NCBI GenBank assembly: GCA_958296235.1
Contig: OY282457.1
Location: 1,985,684-2,049,683, forward strand
Source: an uncultured Candidatus Binatia bacterium
GTDB lineage: Bacteria; Desulfobacterota; Binatia; Bin18
DNA: 64,000 nt
Direction of reading: 5' to 3'
The position numbers and the translations under genes were made by a program. The notes beneath the pieces are model-generated. The model was given only the letters and a program-made list of their open reading frames with translations, searched no databases and had not been told where the DNA came from. Positions 4,124-55,572 of this stretch are shown here, in pieces (within the stretch, counting starts at the first letter, position 1; each line of letters starts with the position of its first letter).

Positions 4124-5116
4124 TTATTCCGCCAGCGCGCCGCCGCAGGAGCTGCCGGCACCGGCGGTACAGCCATAGCAATGGGCATCCAGACGGATGT
4201 CCCGGCCGATGAGCTGCCGGACCAGGCTGGCGGCTGAGTGTTCGCCCAGGCGCAGGGGAGTGCCGTTGCCCAGACGCAGATCGAGCATCTGGTTGAAATC
4301 GCAGTCGTACAGATAGCCATCCCAGGAGATGCTCACCAAGTGGCGACACATCAGGCTGTCAAGCGTGGCCGGATTAAAAGCCTGGGCCAATAGCTCCATA
4401 TATTCGGCCAGCTTGCCATCTCGCTCCAGGCTATGGGCAAAGCGGGCGATGGGCATATTCGTAATCGTCAAGAGGTTGTTAAACGTCAGCCCAAAGCGTT
4501 CGTCGAGTTCTCGTCTATAATCCGCCTCCAGGTTTTGCTGGGGCGGCGGCAGGTGAGCGCCAACCGGGTTATAGACAAGATTGAGGACCAGGTCTGAGCC
4601 TGCCTGCCCATAGCCGAGGGAGTTCAGTTGTCGGAGGGCGGCAATGGATTTCTCGTAGACACCGTGGCCACGTTGCGCCGAGACGTTCTCTTTCGAGTAG
4701 CAGGGCAGGCTGGCAAAAATTTCAACTTGGTGTGTGGCCAGAAACTCGGCCAAGTCTTCCTGACCGGGCTCAAACAGGACGGTCAAATTACAGCGGTCCA
4801 GCACATGCCGGCCGTCTTGGCGGTTTTGCTCAACCAGAAAACGAAAGGATGGATTCAGCTCCGGCGCGCCGCCGGTCAGATCAACCGTTCGCGCCGTGGC
4901 TGCGCGGATGAGATCAAGGGCCAGCGCGGCCGTCCGCGGCGCCATGATCTCGGTCCGTTGCGGACCGGCGTCCACATGACAGTGGAGACAGGCCTGGTTG
5001 CACAGCTTGCCCAGGTTGACCTGAACGGTCCCCAACTCGGCCCGTTTAAGGGGAAGGCCCTTCTCTTGGCCTACCCGCTCTGTAAAAGGCTGAAAAGATG
5101 GTTCAGCGGCGCGCAT
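4124..5116 (-). CDS. arsS: Arsenosugar-biosynthesis radical SAM protein ArsS
   Basis: CNQACLHCHV is a CxxxCxxC radical SAM motif. The C-terminal Cys cluster CYGCTAGAGSSCGGAL is typical of the ArsS family. It is adjacent to arsM. Confidence 0.7.
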   Translation of the reverse strand: MRAAEPSFQPFTERVGQEKGLPLKRAELGTVQVNLGKLCNQACLHCHVDAGPQRTEIMAPRTAALALDLIRAATARTVDLTGGAPELNPSFRFLVEQNRQDGRHVLDRCNLTVLFEPGQEDLAEFLATHQVEIFASLPCYSKENVSAQRGHGVYEKSIAALRQLNSLGYGQAGSDLVLNLVYNPVGAHLPPPQQNLEADYRRELDERFGLTFNNLLTITNMPIARFAHSLERDGKLAEYMELLAQAFNPATLDSLMCRHLVSISWDGYLYDCDFNQMLDLRLGNGTPLRLGEHSAASLVRQLIGRDIRLDAHCYGCTAGAGSSCGGALAE

Positions 5117-5137
5117 GCGGGGTATCCATTCCTTGGG

Positions 5138-6055
5138 CTAACAGCATTTACTTGGCGCGCAGCACGCCTGCGTGTCTGTGGACGCTTGATAGGCGAGCGC
5201 CTTAGCGCCGGGTTCCCCTTTATGGGCAACCAGGGTCATGGACCGAAAGGCGATACCTTCGACCGTTCGCCACGGCTGCTCGTCACGCCTCAGAACGGCT
5301 ATGCCGGAGAAACCGGCTTCTTCGAACGCTGCGATGAACTCTTTTTCCTGCATGGCCCCAGAGACGCAGCCACTCCATAATTCGGGGTCGGCCTTCAGGT
5401 GAGCCGGCACCGGTTCGTCGGCAACAATATCGGAGATTACCGTCCGCCCGTCCTGGCGCAGCACCCGAAAAATTTCACCAAACAGTTGCCGCTTGTCCGC
5501 GTCCTGGACCAGGTTGAGCACGCAGTTCGAGACGACAACGTCAACGCAACCGTCGGCAATCAGCGGTCGCTGCGTACGCTGTTCGGCCATGACCGCTTCA
5601 AAGGTTTGGAAATCTTCGAGCGAAGCCACCGGATGCTGGCGCAGGTAGGCATCCGCGACATTCAAATCGGTCCGCAAATCCTGGATTCTCCCCCGGTGAA
5701 ACTCGACGTTGTGATAGCCCAATTGTTCGCCAATGGACTGGCGGTATTTCTCGGCGACGTTGAGCATCTCCGGCGTCATGTCAACGCCGATAACCCGACC
5801 TTCGGCCCCAACGACCTGGGCGGCGATATAACAGATTTTGCCTGCGCCCGCGCCAAGATCAAGCACGGTTTCTCCCGGCTGGAGGTGCTGCGAGGGGTCT
5901 CCGCAGCCGTAATCGCGCTCAAGAATTTCTTCGGGGATGAGCGTGAGAAAGCGCGGGTTATAGTCTACCGGGCAGCACAACGCCGCTTCTTCCCGCTGCG
6001 CTCCCGCGGCATAACGCGCCTTGACCGCCTGCTCAATATCAAACACTGCTGTCAT
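5138..6055 (-). CDS. arsM: Arsenite S-adenosylmethionine methyltransferase
   Basis: SAM-MTase motif VLDLGAGAG, conserved N-terminal Cys pair (ALCCPVDY) and C-terminal Cys-rich tail (QACCAPSKCC) as in ArsM. Confidence 0.8.
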   Translation of the reverse strand: MTAVFDIEQAVKARYAAGAQREEAALCCPVDYNPRFLTLIPEEILERDYGCGDPSQHLQPGETVLDLGAGAGKICYIAAQVVGAEGRVIGVDMTPEMLNVAEKYRQSIGEQLGYHNVEFHRGRIQDLRTDLNVADAYLRQHPVASLEDFQTFEAVMAEQRTQRPLIADGCVDVVVSNCVLNLVQDADKRQLFGEIFRVLRQDGRTVISDIVADEPVPAHLKADPELWSGCVSGAMQEKEFIAAFEEAGFSGIAVLRRDEQPWRTVEGIAFRSMTLVAHKGEPGAKALAYQASTDTQACCAPSKCC

Positions 6056-6722: not shown

Positions 6723-7958
6723 ATGCCAACAATTAAAGACGACGCCGGCTCGGAATCGGATACAGCGGCAGGCTTTCACCTCCGACCTCACTTCAAACGC
6801 TTCAACCAAAAAGATGATGTGTTTCGTCGTTCGTGGTGGGATGAACGCATTCGGACCCGGAAGAGCGAGTTATTCTACGAGACGTACAGAGAGCCGCTCA
6901 AAACCTGGCGCAAGGTTGATGGCTTTACCCAAAAAGATTATGCGCTCCGCAATGCCGCCTGGCATGTCAGCGACCTCTTCACTGAACTCAAACAAGACCA
7001 GGATCGTCGAGAAGGCTTTTCCGACGAGTTTACGTTGTACCGAGATGTGGCCGAAGAACAGATGGACCTTGGGACGCCGACTCAAGCCGCGGCTGAGATA
7101 AAACGGGTCGGGAAAGCCTTTGGCGCAGATCTAATTGGCATTGCCGAGTACGACGAACGCTGGATGTACGTGAATAAATTCAGCGATATGAGTAAACGCG
7201 AAAAGCCACAGGAAATTCCCGAGGGCCTGTCGTCTGTGATTGTGGTTGCTCAGGCGATGGACTACGACCTGATTCGGACCGTTCCGTCTGCCCTCAGCGG
7301 TGCGGCAACCGGTCTGGGATACTCGCACGACGCGCTCGTGGTCTTGTCGCTGGCCCAGTACATCCGCAACCTCGGCTATACGGCGATTGCGAGCATGAAT
7401 GATACCGCGCTCGCCATTCCGTATGCGATCAAGGCCGGCTTGGGCGAGTATGGGCGGCTTGGGCTGTTGATTACCAAAGAGTTCGGCCCCCGTGTCCGGC
7501 TCGGCAAGATATTTACCAATCTCCCGCTTGCGCTCGATACACCGATTCGGTTTGGGGTGAAGGAATTTTGCGATACGTGTCAGCGGTGTTCCGCTGGCTG
7601 TCCGGTAAGCGCCATTCCCTCGAACGCTCCGTCGGACGCAATCCATAATCAGTCCAACATCAAAGGTGTCGTAAAATGGACGGTCGATGGGGAAAAATGT
7701 TTCAGTTATTGGGCCGCCCAAAATAGCGACTGCTCTATTTGTATCCGGGTGTGTCCCTACAACAAGGACTTCTCCAAATGGTATACGCGGCTCGGACGCT
7801 GGCTGGCCGGCACGCGATTACGCAAGCTGATGTTGCAGCTTGACGTTGCCACAGGTTTTGGAAGTCGGATGGCATCGAAGCGGTGGTGGCAGGGGGAACG
7901 GGAAGCCTTGGTGGAGCGCATCAGGCAGCTATTGAACCGGGGGAAGGGGAAACGGTAA
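6723..7958 (+). CDS. Reductive dehalogenase / epoxyqueuosine-reductase superfamily protein (B12-type, two [4Fe-4S] motifs). No Tat signal, so it looks like a cytoplasmic orphan.
   Basis: FCDTCQRCSAGCP (CxxCxxCxxxCP) and C..x10..CSICIRVCP are the signature RdhA/QueG ferredoxin motifs. 411 aa without an RRxFLK leader. Confidence 0.6.
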   Translation: MPTIKDDAGSESDTAAGFHLRPHFKRFNQKDDVFRRSWWDERIRTRKSELFYETYREPLKTWRKVDGFTQKDYALRNAAWHVSDLFTELKQDQDRREGFSDEFTLYRDVAEEQMDLGTPTQAAAEIKRVGKAFGADLIGIAEYDERWMYVNKFSDMSKREKPQEIPEGLSSVIVVAQAMDYDLIRTVPSALSGAATGLGYSHDALVVLSLAQYIRNLGYTAIASMNDTALAIPYAIKAGLGEYGRLGLLITKEFGPRVRLGKIFTNLPLALDTPIRFGVKEFCDTCQRCSAGCPVSAIPSNAPSDAIHNQSNIKGVVKWTVDGEKCFSYWAAQNSDCSICIRVCPYNKDFSKWYTRLGRWLAGTRLRKLMLQLDVATGFGSRMASKRWWQGEREALVERIRQLLNRGKGKR

Positions 7959-7991
7959 GAGCCGCCTGAGGGGGGGCTTAAAAACCGTAGC

Positions 7992-8114
7992 ATCATTTTG
8001 TGCGATGCTGTCCGCTCTATTGCCAAAGAGCGCCTCACCCGTCGCTGGGGACGCGTCTCTCCGCCGACGCTGGCCGCGGTCGAGGATCGTCTGCGTATCC
8101 TCATAGGGCTATAG
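7992..8114 (+). pseudogene. C-terminal remnant of a MazF/PemK-family toxin gene (no start codon, in frame after the rdhA-like stop)
   Basis: The frame reads ..ILCDAVRSIAKERLTRRWGRVSPPTLAAVEDRLRILIGL*, matching the conserved MazF C-terminus (..RLGrls...V..aL...LgL). There is no N-terminal part and no initiator. Confidence 0.4.
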
Positions 8115-8124
8115 CCTGCGTGGG

Positions 8125-8290
8125 AGGAATGCAGCGCGATAAGATCGCTGAGCTAATGCGCCTCAGCCCGGAAAAGTCACCTCAGGCACGGCCCGCATAG
8201 CCCGTTCAACCGCCTCAGCCGGATACTCGTAGCGTTCGAGTTTTCCGGCGTGGTAGTCTGAATAAAAATTCTGCGGGAGCACGACCGCCC
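8125..8290 (-). pseudogene. Duplicated 3'-end fragment of trpB2 (~37 codons plus ~36 bp of 3' flank)
   Basis: 8125-8290 aligns at about 85% identity with 11645-11790. It encodes ..[30 protein letters not shown], against trpB2 ..[30 protein letters not shown]. Confidence 0.7.
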
Positions 8291-8519
8291 CCGGCTCCCC
8301 GTCCCGCCTTGGCGATGGTTCCGCCTCACACCGGTTCTGACGCGACAGCCGCCAAAAAACTCGTAAACTTCTCAGAGTTCCAACTGAATATACAAGTAGG
8401 AAGGGCTGCCCCATGCCGGCCCCTGGCTCCCAAAAAATACCCTGCTCCAAATTTCTTTTGAAAAATCCGTGAACTTTTCTGATCCCATTTAGTATCTACC
8501 TAATGAAAGGAGAGAGTAT

Positions 8520-9617
8520 ATGACTGATTGCACACATATCCACCACAGCCCCACCCTGCGGCGCCTGCTCGGCACCGCGGTAGCATTCCCCGACCCGACG
8601 CACCACCAGAGGTGGAGTAGCGGCGTGCTGCTTGGCCTCGCCGCCGGTAACGTGCTCGGGCTCCGCGGCGAGGGCGCGTGGTACGACGAGATCCCCGCCC
8701 GGTATCCGGGCGGCGTCATTGCGCCCGACCCCCAGGAAAAAGAGCGCCCGATGGACGACGACCTCGCCCAGGCCGTGGAGTTGGCCTTAGCCCTGCTCGC
8801 CAAGGGCGATGTCGTCCGGGCGTTCGCCCGGCACCTGGTACGCTGGCGGCGCAAGAACGGCCGCGGGATGGGCCGCACGACCCGAAGCGTCATCAATCTG
8901 CTGGAAGCCGGCACCTCGCCGTATGAGGCCGCCCGCGTGTGCTACGAGCGGAACCCAATTGCCCCCAACGGTGGCCTCATGCGCTGCGCCCCGGTCGCCG
9001 TCGCCCACCAGCACGCCCCGGAGCGGTTGATCCATGACTCGGCCGCCACCTGTGCCGTCACCCATTACGCCCCCACCTGCCAGTGGTCCTGCATCATCCT
9101 CAATGCCGTCATCGCCCTGCTGCTCCAGGACCCTGACCCGGATGTGCCCGCCGTGCTGGCCGCAGCCACAGCCGACGGCGCCCCGGACCTGCACGCTGCG
9201 GCCGCCGCAGACGGCATTCCAACGGACGTGTTCGCCCGTCTCGCCGCCGGCCTGCCCCCCAGCGCTGACACGTCTTGGTTATGTCGCGACCAGCATCTGA
9301 TTGGCCACACCCTGTTGACGCTACAGGTGGGCTTGTGGGCGGCGGTGACAACGCTGAATTTCGAGGACGCGCTGGTGCAGGTCGTCAGGGCGGGTGGGGA
9401 TACGGACACCAACGCCGCGGTGGCGGGGGCCGTGCTGGGTGCCCGCTACGGGGCGACGGCCATCCCCGACCGCTGGCTGGAGTGTATCCCCGATCTGGAG
9501 CGGATCGACCTGCTGGCCACCCTCTTCGCGACGTTTAACCAGATCATTTGGAGAAAGCGGTTTGAGAGGGTAGTGGCCCTTGACACGGAGGACCAGGCAA
9601 AACCCTCCAGAGGGTAG
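8520..9617 (+). CDS. ADP-ribosylglycohydrolase (ARH/DraG family)
   Basis: Strong RBS aaaggagag. GGDTDTNAAVAGAVLGARYG is the ARH C-terminal metal-site motif. The N-terminal GLAAGNVLG and MDDDL are variants of the GDALG / TDDT motifs. Confidence 0.8.
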   Translation: MTDCTHIHHSPTLRRLLGTAVAFPDPTHHQRWSSGVLLGLAAGNVLGLRGEGAWYDEIPARYPGGVIAPDPQEKERPMDDDLAQAVELALALLAKGDVVRAFARHLVRWRRKNGRGMGRTTRSVINLLEAGTSPYEAARVCYERNPIAPNGGLMRCAPVAVAHQHAPERLIHDSAATCAVTHYAPTCQWSCIILNAVIALLLQDPDPDVPAVLAAATADGAPDLHAAAAADGIPTDVFARLAAGLPPSADTSWLCRDQHLIGHTLLTLQVGLWAAVTTLNFEDALVQVVRAGGDTDTNAAVAGAVLGARYGATAIPDRWLECIPDLERIDLLATLFATFNQIIWRKRFERVVALDTEDQAKPSRG

Positions 9618-9754
9618 CCCGTCGAGCAAGAGGGCCGTGAACGTTTTGACGAGAGAGAAAGGAGCGAGAACGATGGCGACCGTATTAATTGAGCAGGGTG
9701 GCGGTCCAGACGGTCGGCACCTCATGGAGAGCCAAGAATACGAAGGAGGCAGCA

Positions 9755-10282
9755 ATGGATGAGTCCCGATTCCGAGTCAGCTACTACTATAGCGAAAAAG
9801 AAGGAACCATCGCTATCGACCTTGACGACCTCCACAAGATGCTGAACACCGGTCACGGCTACCACAAGATCATCAAATCCCGGCCTTCGCGTTTCTGCGA
9901 TGTCGTCGGCCGCAGCAGGCTCAATGACGACGGAGTGCTCGTATTCGTAATGGAAGCCGGAGCACTTGAGATAGAACCGATGAACTTTGACCCCGTTCCG
10001 CGCCTGGTGGACATAGGAGAAATAGGACGAGAACATCCCGTCCCCATGCCTAATGTCTCCAAGCCGGGAATCGCCACCGAGGAGCACCCCCCCATCCTGC
10101 CCTGTAAATGGGAAACCATCACCACCTCAGATGGGGTCAAGAAGGATGAGGAGACCGTCACCATTGCTCTCGACGACCTCCAACAGATGTTGAACACCGG
10201 CTACGGCTATCACGAGATTGCCAAATCTCGGGCGGCCGGCTCTGTCTCTATCGTCCGCCGCCGGACTGCACCGTCCTGTTGA
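9755..10282 (+). CDS. Hypothetical protein with an internal tandem repeat
   Basis: RBS aggagg then ATG 9755. Two ~30-aa repeats: TIAIDLDDLHKMLNTGHGYHKIIKSR and TVTIALDDLQQMLNTGYGYHEIAKSR. No family recognised. Confidence 0.45.
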   Translation: MDESRFRVSYYYSEKEGTIAIDLDDLHKMLNTGHGYHKIIKSRPSRFCDVVGRSRLNDDGVLVFVMEAGALEIEPMNFDPVPRLVDIGEIGREHPVPMPNVSKPGIATEEHPPILPCKWETITTSDGVKKDEETVTIALDDLQQMLNTGYGYHEIAKSRAAGSVSIVRRRTAPSC

Positions 10283-10382
10283 CGCACAGGACGGACAACC
10301 GATATGGAAGCTCCCTCATGCCCCGGGCCAAGAGGGTTTTCATCATTCCGGGGGAGAGAGCAGGGGAATAAAGGAGTCTACT

Positions 10383-11384
10383 ATGACGTGGTTTGAAGAA
10401 CTGACCGGCTTTTCAGAAGAGTCCCCCGAGCAGGTACGGGCGAATCTCAGCGTGGACGGTCAGGTGTTGCGATCTCATGTCACCGGGAAAACGCTGGTGT
10501 GTGGCGAACTGGAAACGCCGTCCTTGGCCGAGTTGCGCCACCGGGTCCAAGCGAGCGGGTATGAGACTGGAGCCATGACGATCCGCGAGGTCGTTGCCAA
10601 CGTCCAGAAGTTGCACACGAACGCGGCGAATACAGGCGCGTTGTTTCAGGTCGCGTCCCAGTTCAATCTGCTTGAAATGACGGGTCCAGGGGTCACCCCT
10701 GAGGAGGGGGTTGGCATTTATGAGCATGATCTCACTCAGGGACCGGCGTGTGCCATCGCGGCTGGGGCGGGCACGATCTATCGCAACTACTTTGCCCCCG
10801 TGAACGGACAGACCGGGCAATCCGCCACCAACCAAATCGATTGCCTGGCGGATATCGGCGCGGCCCTGGGCAATACCGAGAATCGTCTGTGGGACATGCG
10901 CAACGGGTATGCGTGGCCTTCATATGAGGGGTTAGTCGAGATTGGGGAGTGCCTGCGCGCGGCGAGTAAGCCGGAGCTGGATGAGTTGCGCCAACTGCTC
11001 CGCATCGGTCTTCAGTGGCACACGCAAGTGACGCTCGATGACTGCACCCATACGGTCTCCCAAGCCTGTTGTTCTGCCTTGCCGGTCGGCTATCTGGATC
11101 ATTCTCATGAACTGTGGACCGAGTTCGCCCGGCTCGTTCTGGAGGCGACCTACGAGGCCACGCTCTGCGCGGCTCTCGTGAATGCGCGCCAAACCGGCAA
11201 CAAAACGGTATTTCTGACCCTGGTCGGTGGCGGAGTGTTTGAGAACGACCCCGATTGGATTCTCAGCGGCCTCCAACGCGCTTTGGACCTCTACCAGGAT
11301 GCTGCTCTTGACGTCGCCATTGTTAGCTATGGGTCGTCAAATCCAGATATCCAGCATCTTGTGAGCCACACAGATTACGATTAG
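10383..11384 (+). CDS. Hypothetical protein, possibly a divergent macrodomain / bacterial PARG-like (DUF2263-like) ADP-ribose hydrolase
   Basis: RBS aaggag then ATG 10383. FLTLVGGGVFENDP resembles the GCGVFGNDP motif I recall from bacterial PARG/DUF2263 macrodomains. An upstream NAAN..FQVASQFN..GPG..PEE segment loosely resembles the diphosphate-binding loop. The assignment is tentative. Confidence 0.4.
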   Translation: MTWFEELTGFSEESPEQVRANLSVDGQVLRSHVTGKTLVCGELETPSLAELRHRVQASGYETGAMTIREVVANVQKLHTNAANTGALFQVASQFNLLEMTGPGVTPEEGVGIYEHDLTQGPACAIAAGAGTIYRNYFAPVNGQTGQSATNQIDCLADIGAALGNTENRLWDMRNGYAWPSYEGLVEIGECLRAASKPELDELRQLLRIGLQWHTQVTLDDCTHTVSQACCSALPVGYLDHSHELWTEFARLVLEATYEATLCAALVNARQTGNKTVFLTLVGGGVFENDPDWILSGLQRALDLYQDAALDVAIVSYGSSNPDIQHLVSHTDYD

Positions 11385-11680
11385 CTGCAACATAACGAAC
11401 CGTGATTTACCGGCAGTTGTGACAGATGCAGCAATACCGCTGGCAGCGGGGTCGGGCGGTATCTTATTCAGGAGAGAGCGCCAATAAGTTGTCGGCCAGC
11501 GTTTCGATCCGCTCGCGCTCAGGAATGCAGTCCAGCCAGTCGCGCGGGCCGTTGATAAAGCCGGTCACACTCTCCACGGTGGTCTGCGACCGCTCAATAT
11601 TGAACAAGTGGCTGTGTTGGACAGGATGAGCATCTCGGCGTTCGGAATGCGGCGCGATAAGACCACCGAGTTAATGCACG

Positions 11681-13063
11681 TCACCCCGGAAAAGTCACCT
11701 CAGGCACGGTCCGCATAGCTCGTTCAATCGCCTCAGCCGGATACTCGTAGCGTTCGAGTTTTCCGGCGTGGTAGTCGGCATAGGCGCTCATATCAAAATG
11801 ACCGTGGCCGCTCAGATTAAACGCAATGACTTTCTTTTCGCCGCTTTCCCGGCACTGCACAGCCTCATTCATCGCCGCGCAGATTGCGTGGTTGGACTCG
11901 GGCGCCGGCACTATCCCTTCGGCCCTGGCAAACGCCACACCGGCCTCAAAGGTCGCAAGCTGATCAAACGCGGTGGCCTCAATATGACCGCTGTGCGCCA
12001 GCGCACTCACGTGTGGAGCCATGCCATGATAGCGCAGCCCGCCGGCATGGATGGTCGCCGGCATAAACGAATGACCCAGCGTGTACATCTGACAAATCGG
12101 CGCAACACCGCCAGCGTCGGCCCAATCCCAGGTGAAAGAACCTTTGGTTAAGGTCGGACAGGCGGCCGGCTCAACTGCGATAATACGCGTGTTCTTGCCC
12201 TGCTTGAGTTTCTCTCGGACGAACGGAAAGGCAAAACCGGCAAAATTCGATCCGCCCCCGGCGCAGCCGATGACAATGTCCGGGTACTCGCCGGCCATCT
12301 CCATTTGGCGTAATGCCTCTTCACCAATAATGGTTTGATGCAGCAACACATGCGGGAGAAAAGAGCCCAGACTGTACTTTTTCGTCCCGCCGGACTGTTG
12401 GGCGGCTTCAATCCCTTCTGAGACGGCCAGCCCCAATGAGCCGGGATGGTCCGGGTCTTCAGCCAGAAACCGCCGTCCCACTTCGGTTCGGTCGGACGGA
12501 CTGGCAAACACCTCAGCGCCATAGGTCGCAATCACGTGGCGACGATAGGGCTTTTGCTGAAACGAGATACGGACCATATACACTTCGCAGCCCAGCCCGA
12601 ACATATTGCATGCCATAGCCAGGGCCGTGCCCCACTGGCCCGCGCCCGTTTCTGTCGTCAGCGTCTTGATACCTTCTTGCTTGGCATAAAACGCCTGGGC
12701 CACAGCCGTGTTCGGCTTATGTGAACCAACCGGACTGACACCTTCATATTTGTAATAGATGTGGGCTGGGGTCTGGAGCGCCCGCTCCAGCCGGCGGGCC
12801 CGAAAAAAGGGGGTTGGTCGCCAGAGTGTATAGATATCGCGGACCGGCTCCGGGATTTCAATATAGCGCTCTTGGCTGACATCCTGAGCGAGGAGGGCTG
12901 TTGGCGTAAAGGAAGCCAGGTACTCGGGTGTGACCGGCTGTTTGGTTTCCGGGTGGAGCGGCGGCATCAGGGGTGCGGGCATGTCGGCATTGATGTTATA
13001 CCACGCCGTGGGCATCTGGTGTTCTTCAAGCAGATATTTGGTCTGGTCACTCATGCGGGTCAT
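11681..13063 (-). CDS. trpB2: TrpB2-type tryptophan synthase beta-like PLP enzyme
   Basis: The 460-aa N-terminus [20 protein letters not shown] and the PLP lysine context are TrpB2-specific; the protein is full length. Confidence 0.85.
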
Positions 13064-13089
13064 CCTTGGAACGGGTCAGCGTCCGCTCG

Positions 13090-14943
13090 CTACGCCTGTG
13101 TCACGTCGCGGACCGCTCCACGGGCCGCGCTGGTTGTCAGCGCCGCATAGGCTTGCAGGGCGGCTGACACCGGGCGTTTACGTCCGAGCGGCTTGTAGGC
13201 GTCCTTGCCTTTGGTCTCCATCTTTTTGCGCCGTTCGGCCAGCTCTTCTTCCGAGAGCAGGACGTTGATCGAGCGCTGCGGGATATCGATACGGATGATG
13301 TCGCCCTCTTCGACCAGGGCAATAACGCCGCCTTCCGCGGCTTCGGGCGACACATGCCCGATCGACAGGCCGCTGGTGCCGCCGCTGAAACGACCATCAG
13401 TCACCAGCGCGCATTGGGCGCCCAGATGTTTGGACTTGATATAGGAAGTCGGGTAGAGCATCTCCTGCATCCCTGGTCCCCCGCGTGGGCCTTCATAGCG
13501 AATGACCACCACATCGCCGGGCCGGAGCTGATCGCCGAGGATGCCCTCGCAGGCCGCGTCTTGCGATTCGAATATACGTGCCGGACCCTCCATGACCCAG
13601 ATGGATTCGTCCACGCCGGCGGTTTTGACAATACAGCCGTCCTCGGCCAGATTGCCGTACAGGACGGCCAGACCACCATCCTGGCTGTAGGCAAACTCGG
13701 TCGAACGAATGCAGCCCTTGATCGCGTCCTTGTCCGGGGTGTCATAATACGGATTGTGTGCAAAGGCTTCTTTGGTGCGGATATTACACGGCGCCGCCAG
13801 GCTGCGTTTGCGGGCAAACTCGTCCGGCTGCTCGCGTCTGATGTCGTTCGCTTCGAGCATTTCGCCCAGTGTCAGGCCCGTCACCGTCTTGACGTTGGTA
13901 TGCAGTTTCCCGGCGCGCTCCAGTTCACCCAGAATCGTGGCGATGCCGCCAGCGCGGGCGCAGTCTTCAATATGGTAGATGGCCGAGGCTGGGGCGAGTT
14001 TGCATATACAGGGCACGCTGCGCGACAGCCGGTCGATATCAGCCATCGTGAAATCGACTTCCGCCTCTTGGGCCGCGGCTAACAAGTGGAGAACCGTGTT
14101 GGTCGATCCACCCATAGCGATATCCAGGGTGATCGCATTTTCAAAGGCTTCAAACGTGGCAATGCTGCGTGGCAATACCGAGTCGTCGCCTTCGACATAA
14201 TAGGCGTTGGCCATCTCGACAATGCGTTTGGCGGCCCGCTGAAAGAGTTCCCAGCGCAGGGCGTGCGTAGCCAGGATGGTGCCATTGCCCGGCAACGCCA
14301 GGCCGATGGCCTCGTTCAGGCAGTTCATGCTGTTGGCGGTAAACATGCCGGAGCACGAGCCGCAGGTCGGGCAGGCCGCCTCTTCCATCTTCTCGACATC
14401 TTCATCGCTGAGCGAGTCGTCACCGGCCCCGATCATGGCGTTGACCAGATCGAGCTTGGCCAGGCCGGTAGACAGCTCGGTCTTACCGGCCTCCATCGGA
14501 CCGCCGGAGACAAAAACGGCCGGAATGTTCAGCCGCATGGCCGCCAGCAACATACCTGGGGTGATCTTGTCGCAGTTAGAGATGCAAATCATCGCATCGG
14601 CTTTATGCGCCTGAACCATGTACTCGACACTATCGGCAATCAACTCGCGGCTGGGCAGAGAATACAGCATCCCGTCGTGGCCCATGGCAATGCCGTCATC
14701 CACCGCGATCGTATTGAACTCGACGCCGTAGCCGCCGTTGGCATCCACCACCTGTTTGACCCGCTGTCCGATCTCGTGCAGATGGACATGACCGGGCACG
14801 AACTGGGTAAACGAATTGGCAATGGCAATAATCGGTTTTTGGAAATCTTCCTTTTTCATACCGGTCGCCCGCCACAGGGCGCGCGCACCGGCCATACGCC
14901 GTCCTTGGGTGGTGATGCTGCTCCGAAATCCGCGCTGTTGCAT
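13090..14943 (-). CDS. ilvD: Dihydroxy-acid dehydratase
   Basis: 617 aa with the CDKITPGM [Fe-S] motif and IlvD/EDD signatures along the full length. Confidence 0.9.
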
Positions 14944-15160: not shown

Positions 15161-15367
15161 ATGGTCAACCTGGAACCCCTGACGCTGGCGGAACTCATTA
15201 ACTCACTCATAGGGATAGCTGGCTTGTCTCTGGTGGCGTGGGGCATTAATGAGATGCGCAACAGCAACATTGACCGAAAGGCAAACGCTGAAGTCCTGCA
15301 GGGCGTAGCCCGGACGCTGAATGCGCATACCGCTGCTTTGGAGCGTTTGCTGGGGAAGCGCGAATAA
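15161..15367 (+). CDS. Small hypothetical protein (68 aa), one predicted TM segment
   Basis: Good RBS aaagaggtg 6 nt before the ATG. No homolog recognised. Confidence 0.3.
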   Translation: MVNLEPLTLAELINSLIGIAGLSLVAWGINEMRNSNIDRKANAEVLQGVARTLNAHTAALERLLGKRE

Positions 15368-15433
15368 AGAAGCCTGTCTGCGCCCCGCGTCCAGCAGCGT
15401 GAGCGGAGATGTAAGAAGGAGGAATACAGCATC

Positions 15434-16195
15434 ATGGCAGGGCAAGTAGACGGAAAAATTGCATTGGTGACTGGCGGCGGGTCGGGCATTGGCCGGTCTG
15501 CGTCATTAGCGTTAGCCCGCGAAGGCGCATCGGTCGTTGTTTCCGATGTGGTTGTTGAAGGTGGAGAGCAGACGGTCAATTTCATCAAATCCGCCGGGGG
15601 CGAGGCCGTGTTTGCGCAAACCGACGTGGCCCAGGCTGCGGAAGTCGAGGCATTAGTCAAGCAAACGGTGGAGACGTATGGGCGGCTTGACTGCGCCTTC
15701 AACAACGCTGGAATTGCCGGCGCGGCGGCGCGAACCGCTGACTACACCGAGAAACACTGGGAGCGGGTGATTGCGATTAACCTGACCGGGGTATGGCTGT
15801 GCATGAAGTATGAGCTCCAGCATATGCTGACGCAGGGCAGCGGCGCGATTGTCAATACCGCCTCAGTTGCCGGTCTGGTCGGTTTTCGGAGTGGACCGGC
15901 CTACGTGGCGGCAAAGCACGGAGTGGTCGGACTGACTAAGACCGCGGCCTTGGAATACGCCAAATCCGGCATTCGAGTGAACGCTGTCTGTCCGGGGGTC
16001 ATCCGCACCCCGATGTTCGAACGCGGCCTGGAGATAGACCCGCGCATAGAAGACGGCATGACCGCCAAAGAGCCGATTGGTCGCTTGGGAAAACCTGAGG
16101 AGATTGCCGAAGCCGTGGTCTGGCTCTGCTCCGACGCGGCGTCGTTTGTGACTGGCCATCCGATGGTTGTTGATGGTGGTTGGGTTGCCCAGTAG
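15434..16195 (+). CDS. SDR-family oxidoreductase
   Basis: TGGGSGIG Rossmann motif, NNAG, and YVAAK catalytic Y-x3-K. Confidence 0.85.
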
Positions 16196-20217: not shown

Positions 20218-21171
20218 ATGAAGATGAGGCATGTATATACATTAGTATTTTTTATCGTCGTGGCCTGGGTGTTTGGGCCGACCCCGGCACGGGCGGGTTC
20301 GGGCTTTTACCTCAGCAGCGAGTTGGGGGCCAACTTCGCCTCCGGGGTGGACCTCAATGAATACGACAACGACCGGGCCAGCCACTGCGACGAATTCCAC
20401 AACCCGCTGTATGCGTCCGTTCCCGAATGCACAGACCCCGCGGGCCGGGGCGACCGTTGGATGAGCGAATTCGACGATGCCGAGGGTATTCTGGCCGGCA
20501 CCGCGGCCGGCTACAGCCTGCGGGACCGCTTCCCGGACTACTTTCTGGGCCGCTTCCGGCTGGAGTTGGAATACTTCTACCGCAACTCCGAATACGACCA
20601 GAAAGCCGACATCATGACCGGGGCCGACGGGGGTGGCTCGGTCGGCGAAAAGCTGGCCGGGGAGATCGTGCAGGCCGAAGCCACGGTCGACGGTATCGCC
20701 TCGCATAATCTGTTCGGGAACCTGTATTTCGACTTTTTCAACTCCAGCCGCTTCACGCCCTACATCGGCTTCGGGGTCGGCGTCGGCTTCACGGACATGG
20801 AGTATGGGAATCTGTGGGTCCGCAATATCGACCCGGAGCGCAGCACGGCCGGCGCGGGCTTGCCCAATGTGGACCAGATCCGCCAGAGCCTCGCCGGCAC
20901 AGTCACCAGCGAGCAGGCCGACCTGAGCGACACACTGTTCGGCTACCAGGTGTTGTTCGGCGTGGACTACGCGCTGACGGAAGCACTGTCACTCGGTGTC
21001 AAGGGCCGCTGGGTCAACTTCGACAGCTTCAAGGACAGCAGCCCGTGGGACCGCTTGCGCAGCCACGACTCCCAACTGAGACTCGACGGCAGCGAACCGG
21101 TGCTGCACCACGTCCCGACCGATGACATGGAAATGTTCGGCGTCAGCCTGAACCTGAAATATCATTTCTAG
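20218..21171 (+). CDS. Outer-membrane beta-barrel protein (OmpW/opacity-like), paralog 1
   Basis: Signal peptide (..ARAGSGFYLSS) and alternating amphipathic strands. The C-terminal LNLKYHF ends in Phe. Confidence 0.6.
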   Translation: MKMRHVYTLVFFIVVAWVFGPTPARAGSGFYLSSELGANFASGVDLNEYDNDRASHCDEFHNPLYASVPECTDPAGRGDRWMSEFDDAEGILAGTAAGYSLRDRFPDYFLGRFRLELEYFYRNSEYDQKADIMTGADGGGSVGEKLAGEIVQAEATVDGIASHNLFGNLYFDFFNSSRFTPYIGFGVGVGFTDMEYGNLWVRNIDPERSTAGAGLPNVDQIRQSLAGTVTSEQADLSDTLFGYQVLFGVDYALTEALSLGVKGRWVNFDSFKDSSPWDRLRSHDSQLRLDGSEPVLHHVPTDDMEMFGVSLNLKYHF

Positions 21172-21227: not shown

Positions 21228-22163
21228 ATGCCTATACGACGGACATTCCTGGCGGTGGCGGCTGCCATCGGTCTGCTCGTGCCGGGTTCTGCGCGCGCCG
21301 GGTTCTATCTGAGCGGCGACATCGGGGCCAATTTCGCCTCCGGGCCAGATCTGGAGGGACGCGACAACGACCGGGGCGGCGTGTGCGACGAGTTCATCAA
21401 TCCGCTGTTTGCCGACGTGCCCGGTTGTACCGACCCTATCCGACGGGGCGACAGTTGGATGAGCAAATTCGACGGCGCCGTGGGCATTCTGGCCGGCACC
21501 GCGGCCGGCTACAGCCTCCAGGACCGGTTTCCTGATCACCTGCTCGGCCGTTTCCGCTTGGAGATGGAGTACTTCTACCGCAACTCAGAATACGACCGGG
21601 ACGCCGACATTCGGTTCGGCTCGGGAGCGTCAGTCGCCGCGCATCAGAACGGTGAACTCGTGCTGGCGGAAGATCGGCTGGGCAGCATTGCCGGGCACAA
21701 CCTGTTCGGGAACCTGTATTTCGATTTCTTCAACACCAGCCGCCTCACGCCCTACGTGGGCTTCGGGGTCGGCCTTGGCTTCACCAATGTAGACTATGGA
21801 ACGCTCGGGGCGCTGAATACCGACCCGGCCCGCATCACTTCCGGTGCGGATTTATCCAACGCGGATCAGATCCGCCGGAACCTCGCCGGGACGGTCGTGA
21901 GCGAGCAGACCAACCTCGACGATACGTTGTTCGGCTACCAAGTCCTGTTTGGGGCAGACTACGCGATTACGGAAGCGCTGTCGTTGGGCGTGAAGGGCCG
22001 CTGGGTCGCCTTCGACACATTCCGGGACGGTGGAGGGTGGGACCGTCTGCGCAGCCACGAGTCCCAACTCAGACTCGATGGCAGCGAACCGGTCGCTTAC
22101 AAGATCAAGCTTGACGACATCGAGTTATTCGGCGTCAGCCTGAACCTGAAGTACCACTTCTAG
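21228..22163 (+). CDS. Outer-membrane beta-barrel protein, paralog 2 (tandem duplicate)
   Basis: About 70% identical to the preceding gene along its length, with the same C-terminal LNLKYHF. Confidence 0.6.
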   Translation: MPIRRTFLAVAAAIGLLVPGSARAGFYLSGDIGANFASGPDLEGRDNDRGGVCDEFINPLFADVPGCTDPIRRGDSWMSKFDGAVGILAGTAAGYSLQDRFPDHLLGRFRLEMEYFYRNSEYDRDADIRFGSGASVAAHQNGELVLAEDRLGSIAGHNLFGNLYFDFFNTSRLTPYVGFGVGLGFTNVDYGTLGALNTDPARITSGADLSNADQIRRNLAGTVVSEQTNLDDTLFGYQVLFGADYAITEALSLGVKGRWVAFDTFRDGGGWDRLRSHESQLRLDGSEPVAYKIKLDDIELFGVSLNLKYHF

Positions 22164-22234: not shown

Positions 22235-22310
22235 CGAACCGGGCGGACGCGCTGGTTATAGAGCATTTTGCGCAGAGTGAATCTCAGGACGGCTCGTTCG
22301 GGGCGCGGGA
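22235..22310. repeat. Copy A of a ~75-bp element derived from a GST-gene 3' end
   Basis: About 95% identical to 23750-23827. On the minus strand it encodes ..LRKMLYNQRVRPVREA*, against the GST C-terminus QLRKMLYNQRARPVPE*. Confidence 0.7.
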
Positions 22311-23744: not shown

Positions 23745-23827
23745 CTATTCCGGGACCGGGCGGGCGCGCTGGTTTATAGAGCATTTTGCGCAGAGTGAAT
23801 CTCAGGGTGGCTCGTTCGGGGCGCGGG
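23745..23827. repeat. Copy B of the GST-3'-end-derived element
   Basis: ctattccgggaccgggcgggcgcgctggttTatagagcattttgcgcag... matches the true GST 3' end (25800-25847) with 2 mismatches, then continues like copy A. Confidence 0.7.
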
Positions 23828-25799: not shown

Positions 25800-26522
25800 C
25801 TATTCCGGGACCGGGCGGGCGCGCTGGTTGTAGAGCATTTTGCGCAGCTGGTCTTTCTCTTCCTGTGAGAGCTTGGAAACGTCGAACCCGAGGTCGCTGC
25901 CGACGGCCATGCCTTTTTTGACACCCTCGCGTTCCGAGAGTTCATCAGACCAGCGCTTGAAGTATTTGAACTCGTTGATGTCCTGCCCCTGCGCTTCCCA
26001 GTTGACCGCCCAGGGGTAACAGATCATGTCGGCAATAGTGTATTCGTTCCCGGCCAGATAGGGCTGCCGATATAACTGATTGTTCAGCACGCCGAACAGG
26101 CGATTGACCTCATCCGTAAAACGCCGGACCGCATAGGTCTGATCGCCCTGGTCGTCGCCCAAACGGCGAAAATGACCGCACTCGCCGCTCTTGGGGCCCT
26201 GGTTGGCCATCTGCCACATCAGCCACTGATTGACCTCGTAGCGGACGCGGACATCCTGGGGATAAAACTGGCCGGCCTTCTCGGCGATATACATCATCAT
26301 CGCCCCGGACTCGAAAATGCTGATCGGCTCGCCCCCGCCGAGCGGTTCGTGGTCCACCAGGGCTGGCATCCGATTATTCGGGCAGATCCTGAGAAACTCG
26401 TCCGTGAACTGATCCCCCTGGGCGATATTGCACGGGATCATCTTGTACGGCATGTCGCACTCTTCCAGCAGAATGGTGACTTTCTTACCGTTCGGGGTGG
26501 GCCAGTAGTGTAAATCGATCAT
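25800..26522 (-). CDS. Glutathione S-transferase (YghU/YfcG-like)
   Basis: 240 aa with an N-terminal thioredoxin-like GST fold (HYWPTPNGKKV) and a C-terminal helical domain. Confidence 0.8.
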   Translation of the reverse strand: MIDLHYWPTPNGKKVTILLEECDMPYKMIPCNIAQGDQFTDEFLRICPNNRMPALVDHEPLGGGEPISIFESGAMMMYIAEKAGQFYPQDVRVRYEVNQWLMWQMANQGPKSGECGHFRRLGDDQGDQTYAVRRFTDEVNRLFGVLNNQLYRQPYLAGNEYTIADMICYPWAVNWEAQGQDINEFKYFKRWSDELSEREGVKKGMAVGSDLGFDVSKLSQEEKDQLRKMLYNQRARPVPE

Positions 26523-39010: not shown

Positions 39011-39240
39011 ACTGACAACTAGCAACTGCCATAGCGGTTGGCAATTCTGGCGGCCACAGCTATAGAGCTACGAAGGTATGCAGTGTACGAGTTGCGGCTT
39101 TGCAAATCAGACGGGGATGAAGTGGGGCGTGTCCGCGCCCATTCCCGTCTATCGCATTGTGGAGGAACGCGAGGCCCGTCATCCCCTGGAGGGAACCGTC
39201 CAGACCGGCCTGACGCCGCTGACCGGACGGGAGCAGGAGT

Positions 39241-39292
39241 GGGGGCCTGGATTCCTGCTTCCGCAGGAATGACAGGTGGCTACACAGCATCG
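39241..39292. repeat. 'GGAATGAC' hairpin repeat, copy B
   Basis: Identical to copy A over ~50 bp. Confidence 0.8.
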
Positions 39293-39406
39293 TAAAACGT
39301 ACTAAGCCGGCAGGGCGCAAAGGGCCGTGACCGCCCCGCCCAGACAACGAAGGCCCTGAAACCCTCGTCTTGACCCGCCGGCAACACCTGCGCTAAGCCG
39401 ACCAAG

Positions 39407-40640: not shown

Positions 40641-41337
40641 GCTTCAATGAGGCCCAGGCATCACCACCTGGGAGATTCCATGAAATTTCATTGCGAGTGT
40701 TCCTGCGGATGTATGCTTCAATGAGGCCCAGGCATCACCACCTGGGAGATTCCCATCCAGTCGCCTTCTGCCTGGAAATAGTGGGTGTTACTTCAATGAG
40801 GCCCAGGTATCACCGCCTGGGAGATTCCATAAGCCACATACCTTCGTGGGTCTCGGGCGGATTGCTTCAATGAGGCCCAGGTATCACCGCCTGGGAGATT
40901 CGGAGCGGAGAATCTCGCTCTGCAAGAGATCATGTAGCTTCAATGAGGCCCAGGTATCACCACCTGGGAGATTCCGCCGAACCATGAGACGGACTTATCG
41001 CCAGCATCCCAGCTTCAATGAGGCCCAGGCATCACCACCTGGGAGATTCGGGTTTCGCCTCGCCGACATAGCGAACAGTTATGCTTCAATGAGGCCCAGG
41101 CATCACCACCTGGGAGATTCAGGAGAAACGCCATGGACTGGCAGCGTGTTCTGATGCTTCAATGAGGCCCAGGCATCACCACCTGGGAGATTCGCCGGGC
41201 GGATTGGATTTCGGGGGAGTCGTTGGGGCTTCAATGAGGCCCAGGCATCACCACCTGGGAGATTCTTATGTGCACTGGCGGTGCGAGCGCGATATGGAAG
41301 CTTCAATGAGGCCCAGGCATCACCACCTGGGAGATTC
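40641..41337 (-). CRISPR. CRISPR array with 10 repeats and 9 spacers, transcribed on the minus strand with the leader at 41338-41808
   Basis: The 37/38-bp repeat GCTTCAATGAGGCCCAGGCATCACCACCTGGGAGATTC starts at 40641, 40715, 40790, 40864, 40937, 41012, 41083, 41156, 41228 and 41300. Spacers are 33-37 bp and unique. The reverse complement ends ..CATTGAAGC, the typical 3' handle of type I repeats. Repeats 3-5 carry variants (C>T, A>G). Confidence 0.9.
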
Positions 41338-41639
41338 TCCCCCACGCCCAATCCGTTGTTTTGGCTGGGGGTTTTTCCTCGTTTGCGCGGGTTGGCTGTT
41401 TTCTGGCTGGGATACGCCTGACAGCCTTTCTGCCTCAACGAGAAAATCGTTATGTTTCGGCAGGATAGAAGCAACGCGGTCCTCCCCGGCTCTGTGCCCT
41501 CGCTTCCGATCCGCGCTGAGTTTGTTTCCATCCTTACCGGCCCGTTATGACCAGACATCACGCCCTCCCGTTCTCTGTGTGGAACGGCTCGTATCATCTC
41601 TTCTATGTAGCTGTCAAAGAACGGAAAAAGCGGGGAGCG

Positions 41640-41765
41640 GTTCAGTTTCACCTCTCCCTCCCCTGCTGCCGGCTCAACGCCCCCCCACCCTGACCCTCCC
41701 CTCAGAGGGGGGAGGGAATAGCTGCTCCCTCTCCCCTGGAGGGAGAGGGTTGGGGAGAGGGGGCA
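41640..41765. repeat. GC-run hairpin repeats in the CRISPR leader / csb2 3' flank
   Basis: ccctcccctcagaggggggaggg and ccctctcccctggagggagaggg are the same family as 6186-6272 and 55487-55527. Confidence 0.7.
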
Positions 41766-41808
41766 AATACCAAAAATCAGCTGCGAGCGCTGCCAGTGAT
41801 AGCGTCCG

Positions 41809-43986
41809 TCAGCCTGCCGCGCCAAAGAGGCCGCCGCCCCGGTGGCTGTCGCGGCCCAACATCACCGGTCCGTCAACCGCAGTCGCAAAACGAAGACAGA
41901 GGCGTGCCGCTACCCCTCCCCCCTTTGGCCCGCTCTTCAGGTCCAACACTTCGACTTCCGGTCTTGGGATGCCTCGCCGGCCGCACTCAAGAATCACATC
42001 TTGCGTAACGGCAGCCACCGTGTCCTTGCCGCGCTGCGTATGCCGCGTTGGGCGATAGGGCGTTCTGCTTTCCCATAGCCTCGACGGCCCGATAAGGACA
42101 TCGCCGGGGGCAGGTTGCACTGCGGATGACAATGCAACCACGCCGAGCCGACCCGCCCGCACGCGCTCAAGCGAAGAGACAACCCCCTCAAAGTACGCGC
42201 GGTCCGTCCGCTTCGGAGCCTGTTGAGCGCGATCAACCGCCCAGGGCGCGGCCACGATCAAACGGTCAATGCGCCCATCCCCGTCAGTATCATCCGTGGC
42301 AAGAAAAACATGCTCATGCCTACCCGACCCCGCCGGGGCTCCATCAGGCTCGTGCCCGGAAAAAAGCCGAGGCACGCGCTCCTGCCTGTCTTTTGCCAGT
42401 GCCATCAACGCCCGGCGAACCGCGCGTAACAGGGAGGGGGCGTCTGTCATGGCAATACTGGTCTCAGGCGCGACCGAGAACAGCAGCGCGCCGGGCGCGA
42501 CCTCCTTTTGCGGGGCCATCAGACCCAGGCCAAGATAGCGTCCATTCCCAATGACGAGAGGACCATGCACGGCTTGCGCAAACGTCATCTCCACATGATG
42601 CAGGCCACGCGCCGCAAAGCGCCTTGGCATGGCGAACCCTTCCGCCCGCGAGCCGTTGCGGTCGAACGGCTCGCGTTGGACGCGGATGGACGCTACCCGC
42701 GTTGCCACGCCGGCATGACGCAACGCCTGCATAACAGCGTGGGCCGTCTTCGCCTCGTTTGCCACCCGCCCGGCCCCGGTAGTTCCGTGTCCTGCCCGCA
42801 TGGCCGGCAGAGCAGCGGGGGTGACGGTACGCCAGACGCGGAAGCCATCCTGTTCCCTGCTGTCGATGCCATAGTGGTCAAGCATTCCCCGACCTTCGGC
42901 CCGAACGAGGCTCCACGGTTCCACCGTTGCCGAGCCGGTGTTTTCAAGGCCGGAAAACGCCCAAGCGATATCGTCGGCCCGTAAAGGGCAGTTCGGCGGG
43001 ATTTCGACGAGAACACGGCGAATCTCTTGATCCGCATGGATGTGGCCGATGGAGGGGAGCGGCAGAATCCGCACGCGGGCGGCCTTGTCGGCTTCTGTTG
43101 CCTGACGGCCAATGAACACTCGGTCAATCTTCCCGGCTTCTTCGGGGAGCGCCTCTTTCAGCCTCCTCGCGGCCTTGTCCCGCACATTGAGGACGAGTTC
43201 CGTCACCCGTTCGGACGGCCACGGCACAAAAGACTCGTCGGACATGGCCGTCCGTATCTCGAATAGAAAGCGGTGTGGCGGCGTGGCATATGCAACCCTG
43301 GCGAAGCGGGGCTTTGGCGATTGAGAGAAAAGCTGCTGTGGCTTTTTGCCCTCTTGAATCCAGGTGAAACGAGACCGGCCCGCGGCGAACCGCCTTTCAA
43401 GACTGGCGAGTGATCCTTTCTGCGGACACGGGAGAGCCTTGCCGGTATTACCCTCACTCGGACGATGCACCACGCCCCGGTGGCACGCAAGGCGTTGCTC
43501 AATCTCGCTTTCGTCCAGAAGTTCTCCCCAAGCCCACGCCATATCAACGCCCCGCCCAAACTGGTACAAGCGCTCCGCCATCTTACAGATGGTTTGAGCG
43601 TGTTTCTCGTCATACGCATGGTCGTCCGATGTCCAGATAAACAGCAGCGGGATTTTTGCGTCAAAAATATACGGACGAGTAACCTTGGGGGGGGCGGTAC
43701 GAATCTCGCCAATTCGTCTTGGATCGCCGTCGACCGCATCGAGGTCATTATTCGGCACATAGTTTTTGCAGGGTTCGCCTCTGCGAACGGCTGGCGCGGC
43801 AATCACCGGCGCTCCAAGCGTCTCCAGCCATTTCAGCGCGGACCTGTCCTCATCCGCCAGCGTTGCGCCCCTGGCGGCCCCAGCGACCAGCGCCTGAAAC
43901 AGCCGGGCAGGCGCAGGCGGCCAATCCCCAGCCCCGTGATACCGTCCGTCGTGGAAGCGAACCGAGAGAAGCAGAGCGCGTGTCAT
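41809..43986 (-). CDS. csb2: Type I-G CRISPR-associated Csb2 (Cas5u-Cas6u fusion)
   Basis: N-terminal MTRALLLSVRFHDGRYHGAGDWPPAPARLFQALVAG is the Csb2 family signature. The C-terminal Gly-rich RAMP loop is GRDSHRGGGLFGAAG. Confidence 0.8.
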   Translation of the reverse strand: MTRALLLSVRFHDGRYHGAGDWPPAPARLFQALVAGAARGATLADEDRSALKWLETLGAPVIAAPAVRRGEPCKNYVPNNDLDAVDGDPRRIGEIRTAPPKVTRPYIFDAKIPLLFIWTSDDHAYDEKHAQTICKMAERLYQFGRGVDMAWAWGELLDESEIEQRLACHRGVVHRPSEGNTGKALPCPQKGSLASLERRFAAGRSRFTWIQEGKKPQQLFSQSPKPRFARVAYATPPHRFLFEIRTAMSDESFVPWPSERVTELVLNVRDKAARRLKEALPEEAGKIDRVFIGRQATEADKAARVRILPLPSIGHIHADQEIRRVLVEIPPNCPLRADDIAWAFSGLENTGSATVEPWSLVRAEGRGMLDHYGIDSREQDGFRVWRTVTPAALPAMRAGHGTTGAGRVANEAKTAHAVMQALRHAGVATRVASIRVQREPFDRNGSRAEGFAMPRRFAARGLHHVEMTFAQAVHGPLVIGNGRYLGLGLMAPQKEVAPGALLFSVAPETSIAMTDAPSLLRAVRRALMALAKDRQERVPRLFSGHEPDGAPAGSGRHEHVFLATDDTDGDGRIDRLIVAAPWAVDRAQQAPKRTDRAYFEGVVSSLERVRAGRLGVVALSSAVQPAPGDVLIGPSRLWESRTPYRPTRHTQRGKDTVAAVTQDVILECGRRGIPRPEVEVLDLKSGPKGGGVAARLCLRFATAVDGPVMLGRDSHRGGGLFGAAG

Positions 43987-44025
43987 GGTTCAACTCAAGA
44001 AGCTGTGGATTTTTTGTCGGCTTTT

Positions 44026-45972
<1,947 letters not shown>

Positions 45973-45973
<1 letters not shown>

Positions 45974-55444: not shown

Positions 55445-55563
55445 CGCGCAACGAGCAGATGGGGTAAGCGGGGGCCTCACGTTATTCCCTCCCCCCTTGA
55501 GGGGGAGGGCTAGGGTGGGGGGTCCTACGCGCAACGAGCAGACGGGGTGAGCGGGGGCCTCAC
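55445..55563. repeat. 1.45x tandem duplication carrying a GC-run hairpin repeat
   Basis: acgcgcaacgagcagatggggtaagcgggggcctcacg ... cccttgagggggagggctagggtggggggtcct ... acgcgcaacgagcagacggggtgagcgggggcctcacg. Confidence 0.7.
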
Positions 55564-55572
55564 GGGGGACTA

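Follow-up and report, generated by a model that had tools for sequence, protein, structure and literature searches.

A 64,000-nucleotide (nt) stretch of an uncultured Candidatus Binatia bacterium (contig OY282457.1), hereafter the window, contains trpB2, a gene for a TrpB-like enzyme, together with a second, displaced copy of its 3' end. The two copies are direct repeats that bracket a small insert of three genes, here called ARH1, X, and Y: the right-hand copy completes trpB2, and the left-hand copy is a start-less 3' fragment next to an rdhA-like gene of the reductive-dehalogenase family. The repeats are probably the scar of one ancestral insertion, by which the lineage of the window's species acquired an islet within the final 33 codons of trpB2. 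Our verdict is that this was a genuine one-off insertion that regenerated the 3' end of the gene and left an islet, now without an integrase, in a hotspot. The scar represents an ordinary type of event at a gene-swapping hotspot and no new kind of element or mechanism. The value of the locus lies in its being a clean, multi-haplotype record, within one uncultivated species, of an integrase-less islet entering the chromosome and then evolving.

Repeat search and local alignment define a direct repeat without gaps, 139 nt long (8126-8264 and 11644-11782), identical at 126 positions (90.6%), with a start-to-start distance of 3,518 nt; the longest identical run, 48 nt, lies at the trpB2-internal end. 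Each copy comprises the stop codon and last 33 codons of trpB2 (102 nt) followed by 37 nt of 3' flank. A BLAST search of the full 64-kb window against itself returned this as the sole such pair in its region (E 4.8e-49), and the first 19 nt of the flank occur at two places in the 64 kb, both at the repeat copies (0.07 expected). An earlier, sequence-only reading had placed the repeats at 8125-8290 and 11645-11790, with about 85% identity and a content of about 37 trpB2 codons plus some 36 bp of flank. The repeat is real and its content was correctly recognized, but it ends at 8264, identity is about 91%, and the measured extent is 33 codons plus the stop, with 37 nt of flank. That reading also assigned the right-hand copy to the intact gene, whose 3' end is indeed 11681-11782, and took the left copy to be start-less and decayed; it is start-less but hardly decayed, having kept its frame over all 33 codons with no indel or internal stop and with two amino acid changes. 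Chance similarity, low-complexity sequence, or an assembly artefact as the source of the repeat can be regarded as already refuted. The repeat is ordinary coding sequence, so the concern raised with the sequence-only reading, that the similarity might be confined to a low-complexity stretch, does not apply; the self-BLAST score is far from chance, and the same duplication is present in five more independently assembled contigs.

That reading had proposed looking for relatives in which trpB2 lies directly next to the rdhA-like gene without the insert. Five such empty sites were found (L001, L084, L086, L087, and L088), in genomes whose trpB2 is 90-92% identical to that of the window and which represent at least two other lineages. 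The closest species representative, L001 (OY763426.1, labelled Candidatus Binatia), is collinear with the window on both sides of the insert at about 91% DNA identity, a match that includes the rdhA-like gene; here 69 nt separate trpB2 from the end of the convergent rdhA-like gene, and both the insert and the piece of a MazF gene that accompanies the left copy in the window are absent. The other four share this arrangement, with trpB2 about 70 nt from the convergent rdhA-like gene. In L085 (88% trpB2 identity) the insert is likewise absent and rdhA has also been lost, so that the genomes lacking the insert span 88-92% trpB2 identity and at least three lineages. Given the five empty sites, the relatives do not carry the three genes in conserved synteny, the other pattern that had been named as incompatible with an insertion. 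Because empty sites exist and the repeat is not of low complexity, an insertion that regenerated the 3' end of the gene and displaced a start-less copy is supported.

Occupied sites were found in the window and in five further contigs (L081 and L089-L092), all five from a single metagenome assembly (ERZ19489113); the six form one cluster at 98-99% identity. The islet is present in all six, and the left copy has an identical inner boundary in each (...TTATTCA/GACTACC, the slash marking the boundary), suggesting a single ancestral event. The duplication common to all of them is limited to the 102-nt coding part. The fullest islet, of 5.1 kb in L089, has a repeat of these 102 nt only: islet DNA begins right after the stop codon of the intact trpB2, where the 37-nt flank is missing, and continues with a gene for a 74-amino-acid membrane/coiled-coil protein, a gene for 101 amino acids, and a complete ARH2 of 343 amino acids, followed on the other strand by Y, X, and ARH1. 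Where L089 has 1,794 nt, the window has 141 nt (11540-11680), made up of 11 nt of no assigned source, a 93-nt stretch found immediately upstream of GmrSD in L081 and L090-L092, and the 37-nt flank. The insert of 3.4 kb and three genes described in the sequence-only reading is thus real, but it is a cut-down form of a 5.1-kb islet.

The distribution of the flank bears on the history of the scar. It is missing beside the intact gene in L089 and beside the remnant in L081, L090, and L091, it is present on both sides only in the window and L092, and it is absent from every sampled empty-site genome. Since it is two-sided in those two contigs only, the 139-nt repeat of the window is best divided into a primary scar of 102 nt and 37 nt that are probably secondary, the flank having probably been added later; its earlier inclusion in the scar as a constant part does not stand. 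This pattern also argues against a local segmental duplication, in which the 3' end of trpB2 and its flank were copied in place and unrelated genes accumulated between the copies without any element having integrated. Such a duplication would account for the shared flank in the window, for the roughly equal closeness of both copies to the trpB2 of relatives, and for the lack of a mobility gene in the insert and the scanned open reading frames (ORFs). We nevertheless consider it very unlikely, as the flank is so often one-sided among the occupied sites and missing from the empty ones, the L089 repeat stops precisely with the stop codon, and five related genomes lack the intervening DNA, one gene of which has a guanine-cytosine (GC) content of 70%.

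The left side of the islet exists in three forms among the six occupied contigs. A MazF remnant with the 37-nt flank is confined to the window, L089, and L092; L090 and L091 have a native short spacer of the type seen in L086 and L088 and no MazF remnant; and L081 has a third spacer, its trpB2 remnant ending in FPGT and the stop, as in L001. The MazF remnant was correctly recognized in the sequence-only reading (the peptide of 7959-8111 matches PF02452 PemK_toxin with E 1.1e-7 over model positions 66-108 of 109, and NCBIfam MazF with E 0.0018); however, it sits in a 192-nt segment (7967-8158) that replaces 30 nt of native spacer, and it is therefore a separate replacement and not the original neighbour of the scar. 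On the right, GmrSD occupies the same spot in four of the six contigs (L081, L090, L091, and L092; PADLOC 3.8e-166), as two alleles with 77% amino acid identity and with three different junctions within 60 nt of a remnant of ARH2. ARH1 is mostly deleted in L091. With conserved flanking genes and variable cargo among six contigs of one species, the locus has the properties of a hotspot. The two alleles of GmrSD, a type IV restriction gene, at 11126-12835 in L081 and 11137-12843 in L092, lie in one and the same slot of strains that otherwise share 98% identity; in L092 the final codons of the gene are gone, and its stop is supplied by the ARH2 remnant.

In the history that we propose, the incoming DNA would have brought its own copy of the last 33 codons and stop of trpB2. 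The gene would have been kept intact by this imported end (the right copy), and the recipient's native 3' end would have been displaced by about 5 kb to a position next to the rdhA-like gene (the left copy). The early cargo may have comprised two paralogous ARH genes, X, the PARG-like Y, and two small genes. Later, a MazF fragment would have come to lie next to the left copy, a block that begins with the 37-nt flank and carries GmrSD in sister strains would have taken the place of ARH2 and the two small genes, and the left copy would have been partly overwritten by alleles from other strains; these later changes could be explained by homologous and illegitimate recombination. A displaced native 3' end fits exactly, since the left copy of L090 and L091 sits on the native L086/L088-type spacer, and an element-borne replacement 3' end fits because in L089 the stop codon of intact trpB2 is followed at once by islet DNA. 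A foreign origin is supported by the GC content of ARH1, 69-71% as against 58-60% (about 59%) around it.

The repeat, the empty sites, the common inner boundary, the differences among strains, and the lack of recombinase domains in the scanned genes are direct observations; from them we infer that the change was a gain and not a loss and that it arose once. Were the islet instead ancestral to the genus-level group, the empty genomes would have lost it by homologous recombination between the repeats, which form a substrate for excision. Recombination between the repeats of an L090-type locus would in fact recreate exactly the arrangement of L086 and L088, and local deletion is heavy (ilvD independently in L001 and L086, most of ARH1 in L091, ARH2 in the window). 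This history is unlikely, however, as it requires at least three independent precise losses in place of one gain, leaves the origin of the repeat unexplained, and does not account for all occupied sites falling in one 98-99% cluster.

What enzyme carried out the insertion is a more tentative matter. We slightly favour, at somewhat less than even confidence, an integrase-borne element that later lost its integrase: the L089 repeat ends exactly at the stop codon, as if selection had kept only the coding part of the element-borne copy, and the integrase could have been deleted because this neighbourhood loses genes (ilvD twice, ARH2 by truncation, ARH1 in L091, mazEF reduced to a stub). The main alternative, possible but carrying less of our confidence, is one-sided homologous (Campbell-type) or homology-facilitated illegitimate recombination, in which one homologous crossover in trpB2 and an illegitimate join give an identical product. 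The duplication does not look like one made by a transposon. Target-site duplications of transposons range from a few bp to about 15 bp, and the duplication here is 102-139 nt; the insert genes contain no transposase domain, and the repeat search gave no inverted repeat pairing both ends of the insert.

Several observations weigh against a site-specific element and, in part, against the insertion account itself. As the sequence-only reading had stated, no integrase or recombinase is present: recombinase Pfam domains were found neither in the three insert genes nor in the ORFs at 4124-6055 and 6723-7958 and 27 ORFs between 20.2 and 63.6 kb (with 1-4 kb and 15-20 kb covered only through precomputed Pfam tables of collinear sister loci), nor in the gene tables of sister loci L081 and L089-L092. 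A second trpB2 C-terminus within 10 kb was seen in none of 80 other species. IMG/VR viral contigs yielded no confirmed match for close relatives of the trpB2 C-terminal fragment or of Y, and with close relatives of the fragment missing from phage-like contigs, no element is shown to target trpB2. An L090-type site could become empty through recombination between its repeats, so empty sites are not strict proof of a site that was never occupied; the trpB2 of relatives is about as similar to one copy as to the other, so that neither is clearly foreign; and the insertion account leaves the source of the 37-nt flank and the order of later events unexplained. Regeneration of the 3' end by an insertion, the core of the earlier proposal, is borne out by the empty sites, but site-specific integration is plausible only, for lack of an integrase, of reuse of the target in other species, and of a viral carrier.

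Exchange appears to have continued after the insertion. The last 55 nt or so of the left copy in L081 carry L001-type variants, the two copies of a given genome have private variants in common, and the in-gene right copy is 95-96% identical to that of the window in four sister contigs where the rest of trpB2 is 98.6-99.2% identical (98.0-99.2% across all five); in L089 the right copy is 98% identical and shows no extra variability relative to the rest of the gene. On the strength of the L001-type variants, the shared private variants, and the extra variability of the in-gene copy, the repeat copies probably recombine with each other and with the alleles of other strains. The locus behaves as a fixed yet highly plastic islet, now without an integrase, in a recombination hotspot. 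It records a sequence of events in which duplication of a gene end opened the site and cassettes were then swapped, genes truncated, and alleles overwritten.

A known precedent is the e14 element in the Escherichia coli gene icd, flanked by icd and icdC (PMC13626634, citing Hill et al. 1989). As with e14 and phage 21, the insert lies inside the 3' end of a gene for a housekeeping enzyme; the gene stays intact through a slightly different replacement 3' end that comes with the element; a start-less C-terminal fragment (icdC in the precedent) lies at the far end as a direct repeat; and recombination between the copies would yield a chimeric, intact gene (PMC13626634). Unlike the trpB2 insert, which measures 3.4-5.1 kb and in which no recombinase was found, e14 is about 15 kb long, has its own integrase and excisionase, and is excised upon SOS induction; in addition, reuse of the trpB2 target is seen in no other genome (0 of 80 other species).

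Cis-mobilizable or degenerate integrative elements are att-flanked islands without their own integrase. The trpB2 islet resembles them in that direct repeats bracket foreign genes with no integrase inside, and differs in that no related autonomous element, matching integrase, or circular form was identified for it. Hotspots flanked by core genes are usually clean intergenic slots, whereas the trpB2 locus keeps a 102-nt gene-end duplication that records its first opening. In other respects it resembles the core-gene-flanked, integrase-less gene-flux or defence hotspots described previously (Oliveira et al. 2017, PMC5635113; Johnson et al. 2023, PMC10250203), with fixed flanks (rdhA-like and trpB2), strain-variable cargo that includes GmrSD and a MazF remnant, no mobility genes, and alleles exchanged via the flanks; a difference is that its ARH-X-Y core matches no known defence system in PADLOC. 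The trpB2 locus is a fresh example of a known event at a gene-flux hotspot of this type (PMC5635113, PMC10250203).

Two things go beyond this known type of event and are not explained by it. One is the 37-nt flank, at which two unrelated cassettes end, on the left the MazF fragment and on the right the GmrSD block; the other is what ARH-X-Y does. The 37-nt sequence by the trpB2 stop may be a recombination site, at which integrase-less cassettes would be swapped by a recombinase of the host or acting in trans, with ARH-X-Y a conflict system riding there; we give this only a slim chance. If it were true, ARH1, X, and the PARG-like Y would constitute an uncharacterized ADP-ribose-based conflict system, serving in defence or in toxin reversal. 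The flank is not a dispersed repeat, having only two known places in the window and only this locus among the fetched loci, and no likeness to a dif/Xer site was apparent, as judged by eye only. Apart from this, the locus can serve as a worked example, and it draws attention to an unstudied trio (ARH, a repeat protein, and a PARG-like protein) found beside GmrSD and MazF.

Features of the trpB2 locus, with positions in the window
Feature	Position	Strand	Evidence or remarks
rdhA-like (reductive-dehalogenase family)	6723..7958	+	TIGR02486 RDH 2.7e-52; conserved left flank of hotspot
MazF/PemK toxin C-terminal remnant, start-less	7971..8114	+	PF02452
37-nt flank, left copy	8126..8162	.	repeat alignment
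Displaced trpB2 3' end (stop and 33 codons), start-less; constant part of left repeat	8163..8264	-	
Left end of islet, upstream of ARH1	8265..8519	.	no counterpart in empty-site genomes
ARH1, ADP-ribosylglycohydrolase	8520..9617	+	PF03747 E 1.5e-54
X, 176 amino acids, internal 78-nt duplication, no known family	9752..10282	+	
Y, 333 amino acids, PARG-like/macrodomain fold	10383..11384	+	
ARH2 C-terminal remnant (last ~25 codons and stop)	11464..11539	-	contiguous with full L089 ARH2
11 nt of no assigned source plus 93 nt found directly upstream of GmrSD in sister contigs	11540..11643	.	
37-nt flank, right copy	11644..11680	.	repeat alignment
Right repeat: stop and last 33 codons of intact trpB2	11681..11782	-	
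Intact trpB2 (TrpB-like pyridoxal phosphate [PLP] enzyme)	11681..13063	-	NF009057 9e-215; conserved right flank of hotspot

Homologues of trpB2 begin at MSDQ, which gives a product of 457 amino acids for the gene of the window; no exact copy of this gene is on record in the assembly index. We considered the segment 11540-11643 as a diverged second MazF C-terminus and rejected this, as it has no Pfam match at E <=10 and aligns poorly at the nucleotide level with 7960-8125.

The match of ARH1 to PF03747 covers the whole model (positions 1-287 of 287) and is above the Pfam threshold. An inverted repeat that involves the 3' end of ARH1 (I1) is accounted for by the ARH2 remnant. In L089, ARH1 and ARH2 (12310-13204 and 15200-16094) are 76%-identical paralogues in inverted orientation that flank X and Y, and this inverted repeat of about 900 nt could permit inversion of the segment between them. 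X has no match in Pfam, NCBIfam, or PADLOC and only 26 homologues. At the position of X, L082 has a gene for 403 amino acids (8741-9952) with PTP-like phosphatase domains; its match to X lies in the duplicated part. L083 has two distinct genes, one X-like and the other PTP-like.

Y has no sequence match in Pfam, NCBIfam, PADLOC, or the PDB. It is a member of a very large and highly conserved family: clustering at 50% leaves more than 3,700 representatives, and the identity of Y to Nostoc proteins is about 70%. Its AlphaFold (AF2) model has a predicted template-modelling score (pTM) of 0.80 and a mean predicted local distance difference test score (pLDDT) of 72.8, with a loop at 92-114 below 50. 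The best folds in Foldseek are the bacterial PARG structures 5zdc and 3sih (E about 1e-5, probability 1.0, template-modelling score 0.4-0.5), and other macrodomains were matched too. Y lacks the PARG catalytic motif GGG-X6-8-QEE and has an invariant FQVASQFNLLE and a GGGVFEND loop; it resembles bacterial-type PARG (DUF2263) in predicted fold but is not matched to that family by sequence. The label "ARH/PARG-like module" used in the sequence-only reading is a fair description at the level of predicted fold. When the cargo was run through PADLOC, GmrSD scored, with the MazF remnant also present, and ARH1, X, Y, ARH2, and the two small genes had no match.

Outside the window's clade, Y is not found beside ARH or X. 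The idea that Y islands are generally flanked by repeats or accompanied by ARH and X was rejected: ARH or X was near Y in none of 37 metagenome loci of at least 6 kb, and direct repeats flanked Y in two of the 37, as weak matches of 68-86% identity. A comparable scar around Y was seen only in L083, from the window's wider clade, where a 116-nt direct repeat with 82% identity (5614-5721 and 15372-15487) brackets a 9.65-kb Y island containing a DDE transposase fragment and an Eco29kI-type restriction-modification pair. This repeat takes in 8 codons from the end of an OmpA-like gene and 23 from the start of a gene for a 64-amino-acid membrane/coiled-coil protein, which is 38% identical (E 7e-13) to the product of the 74-amino-acid gene at the islet edge in L089.

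On its other side, trpB2 adjoins ilvD in the window (13070-14943; dihydroxy-acid dehydratase, 617 amino acids). Of this gene L001 retains the first 12 or so codons, L086 about 17 N-terminal codons fused to the last 6 or so, and L085 a piece of 299 amino acids; it was deleted twice independently, in L001 and L086, and in L001 at a short TCCTTGG microhomology.

Elsewhere in the window, a type I-U-like CRISPR-Cas locus spans 40641-48723, with a Cas3-like helicase (45973-48723), GSU0053 (44026-45060), GSU0054 (41809-43986), and an array of about 10 units (40641-41337) with the 37-nt repeat GCTTCAATGAGGCCCAGGCATCACCACCTGGGAGATT(C). Two tandem paralogues without a Pfam match (20218-21171 and 21228-22163; 317 and 311 amino acids) share 75% nucleotide identity. 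Intergenic repeats of 38-73 nt, 94-96% identical, occur at 22238-22309, 23755-23827, and 25800-25847, at 1673-1728 and 39240-39295, and at 55444-55481 and 55527-55564; they look like small dispersed repeat elements.

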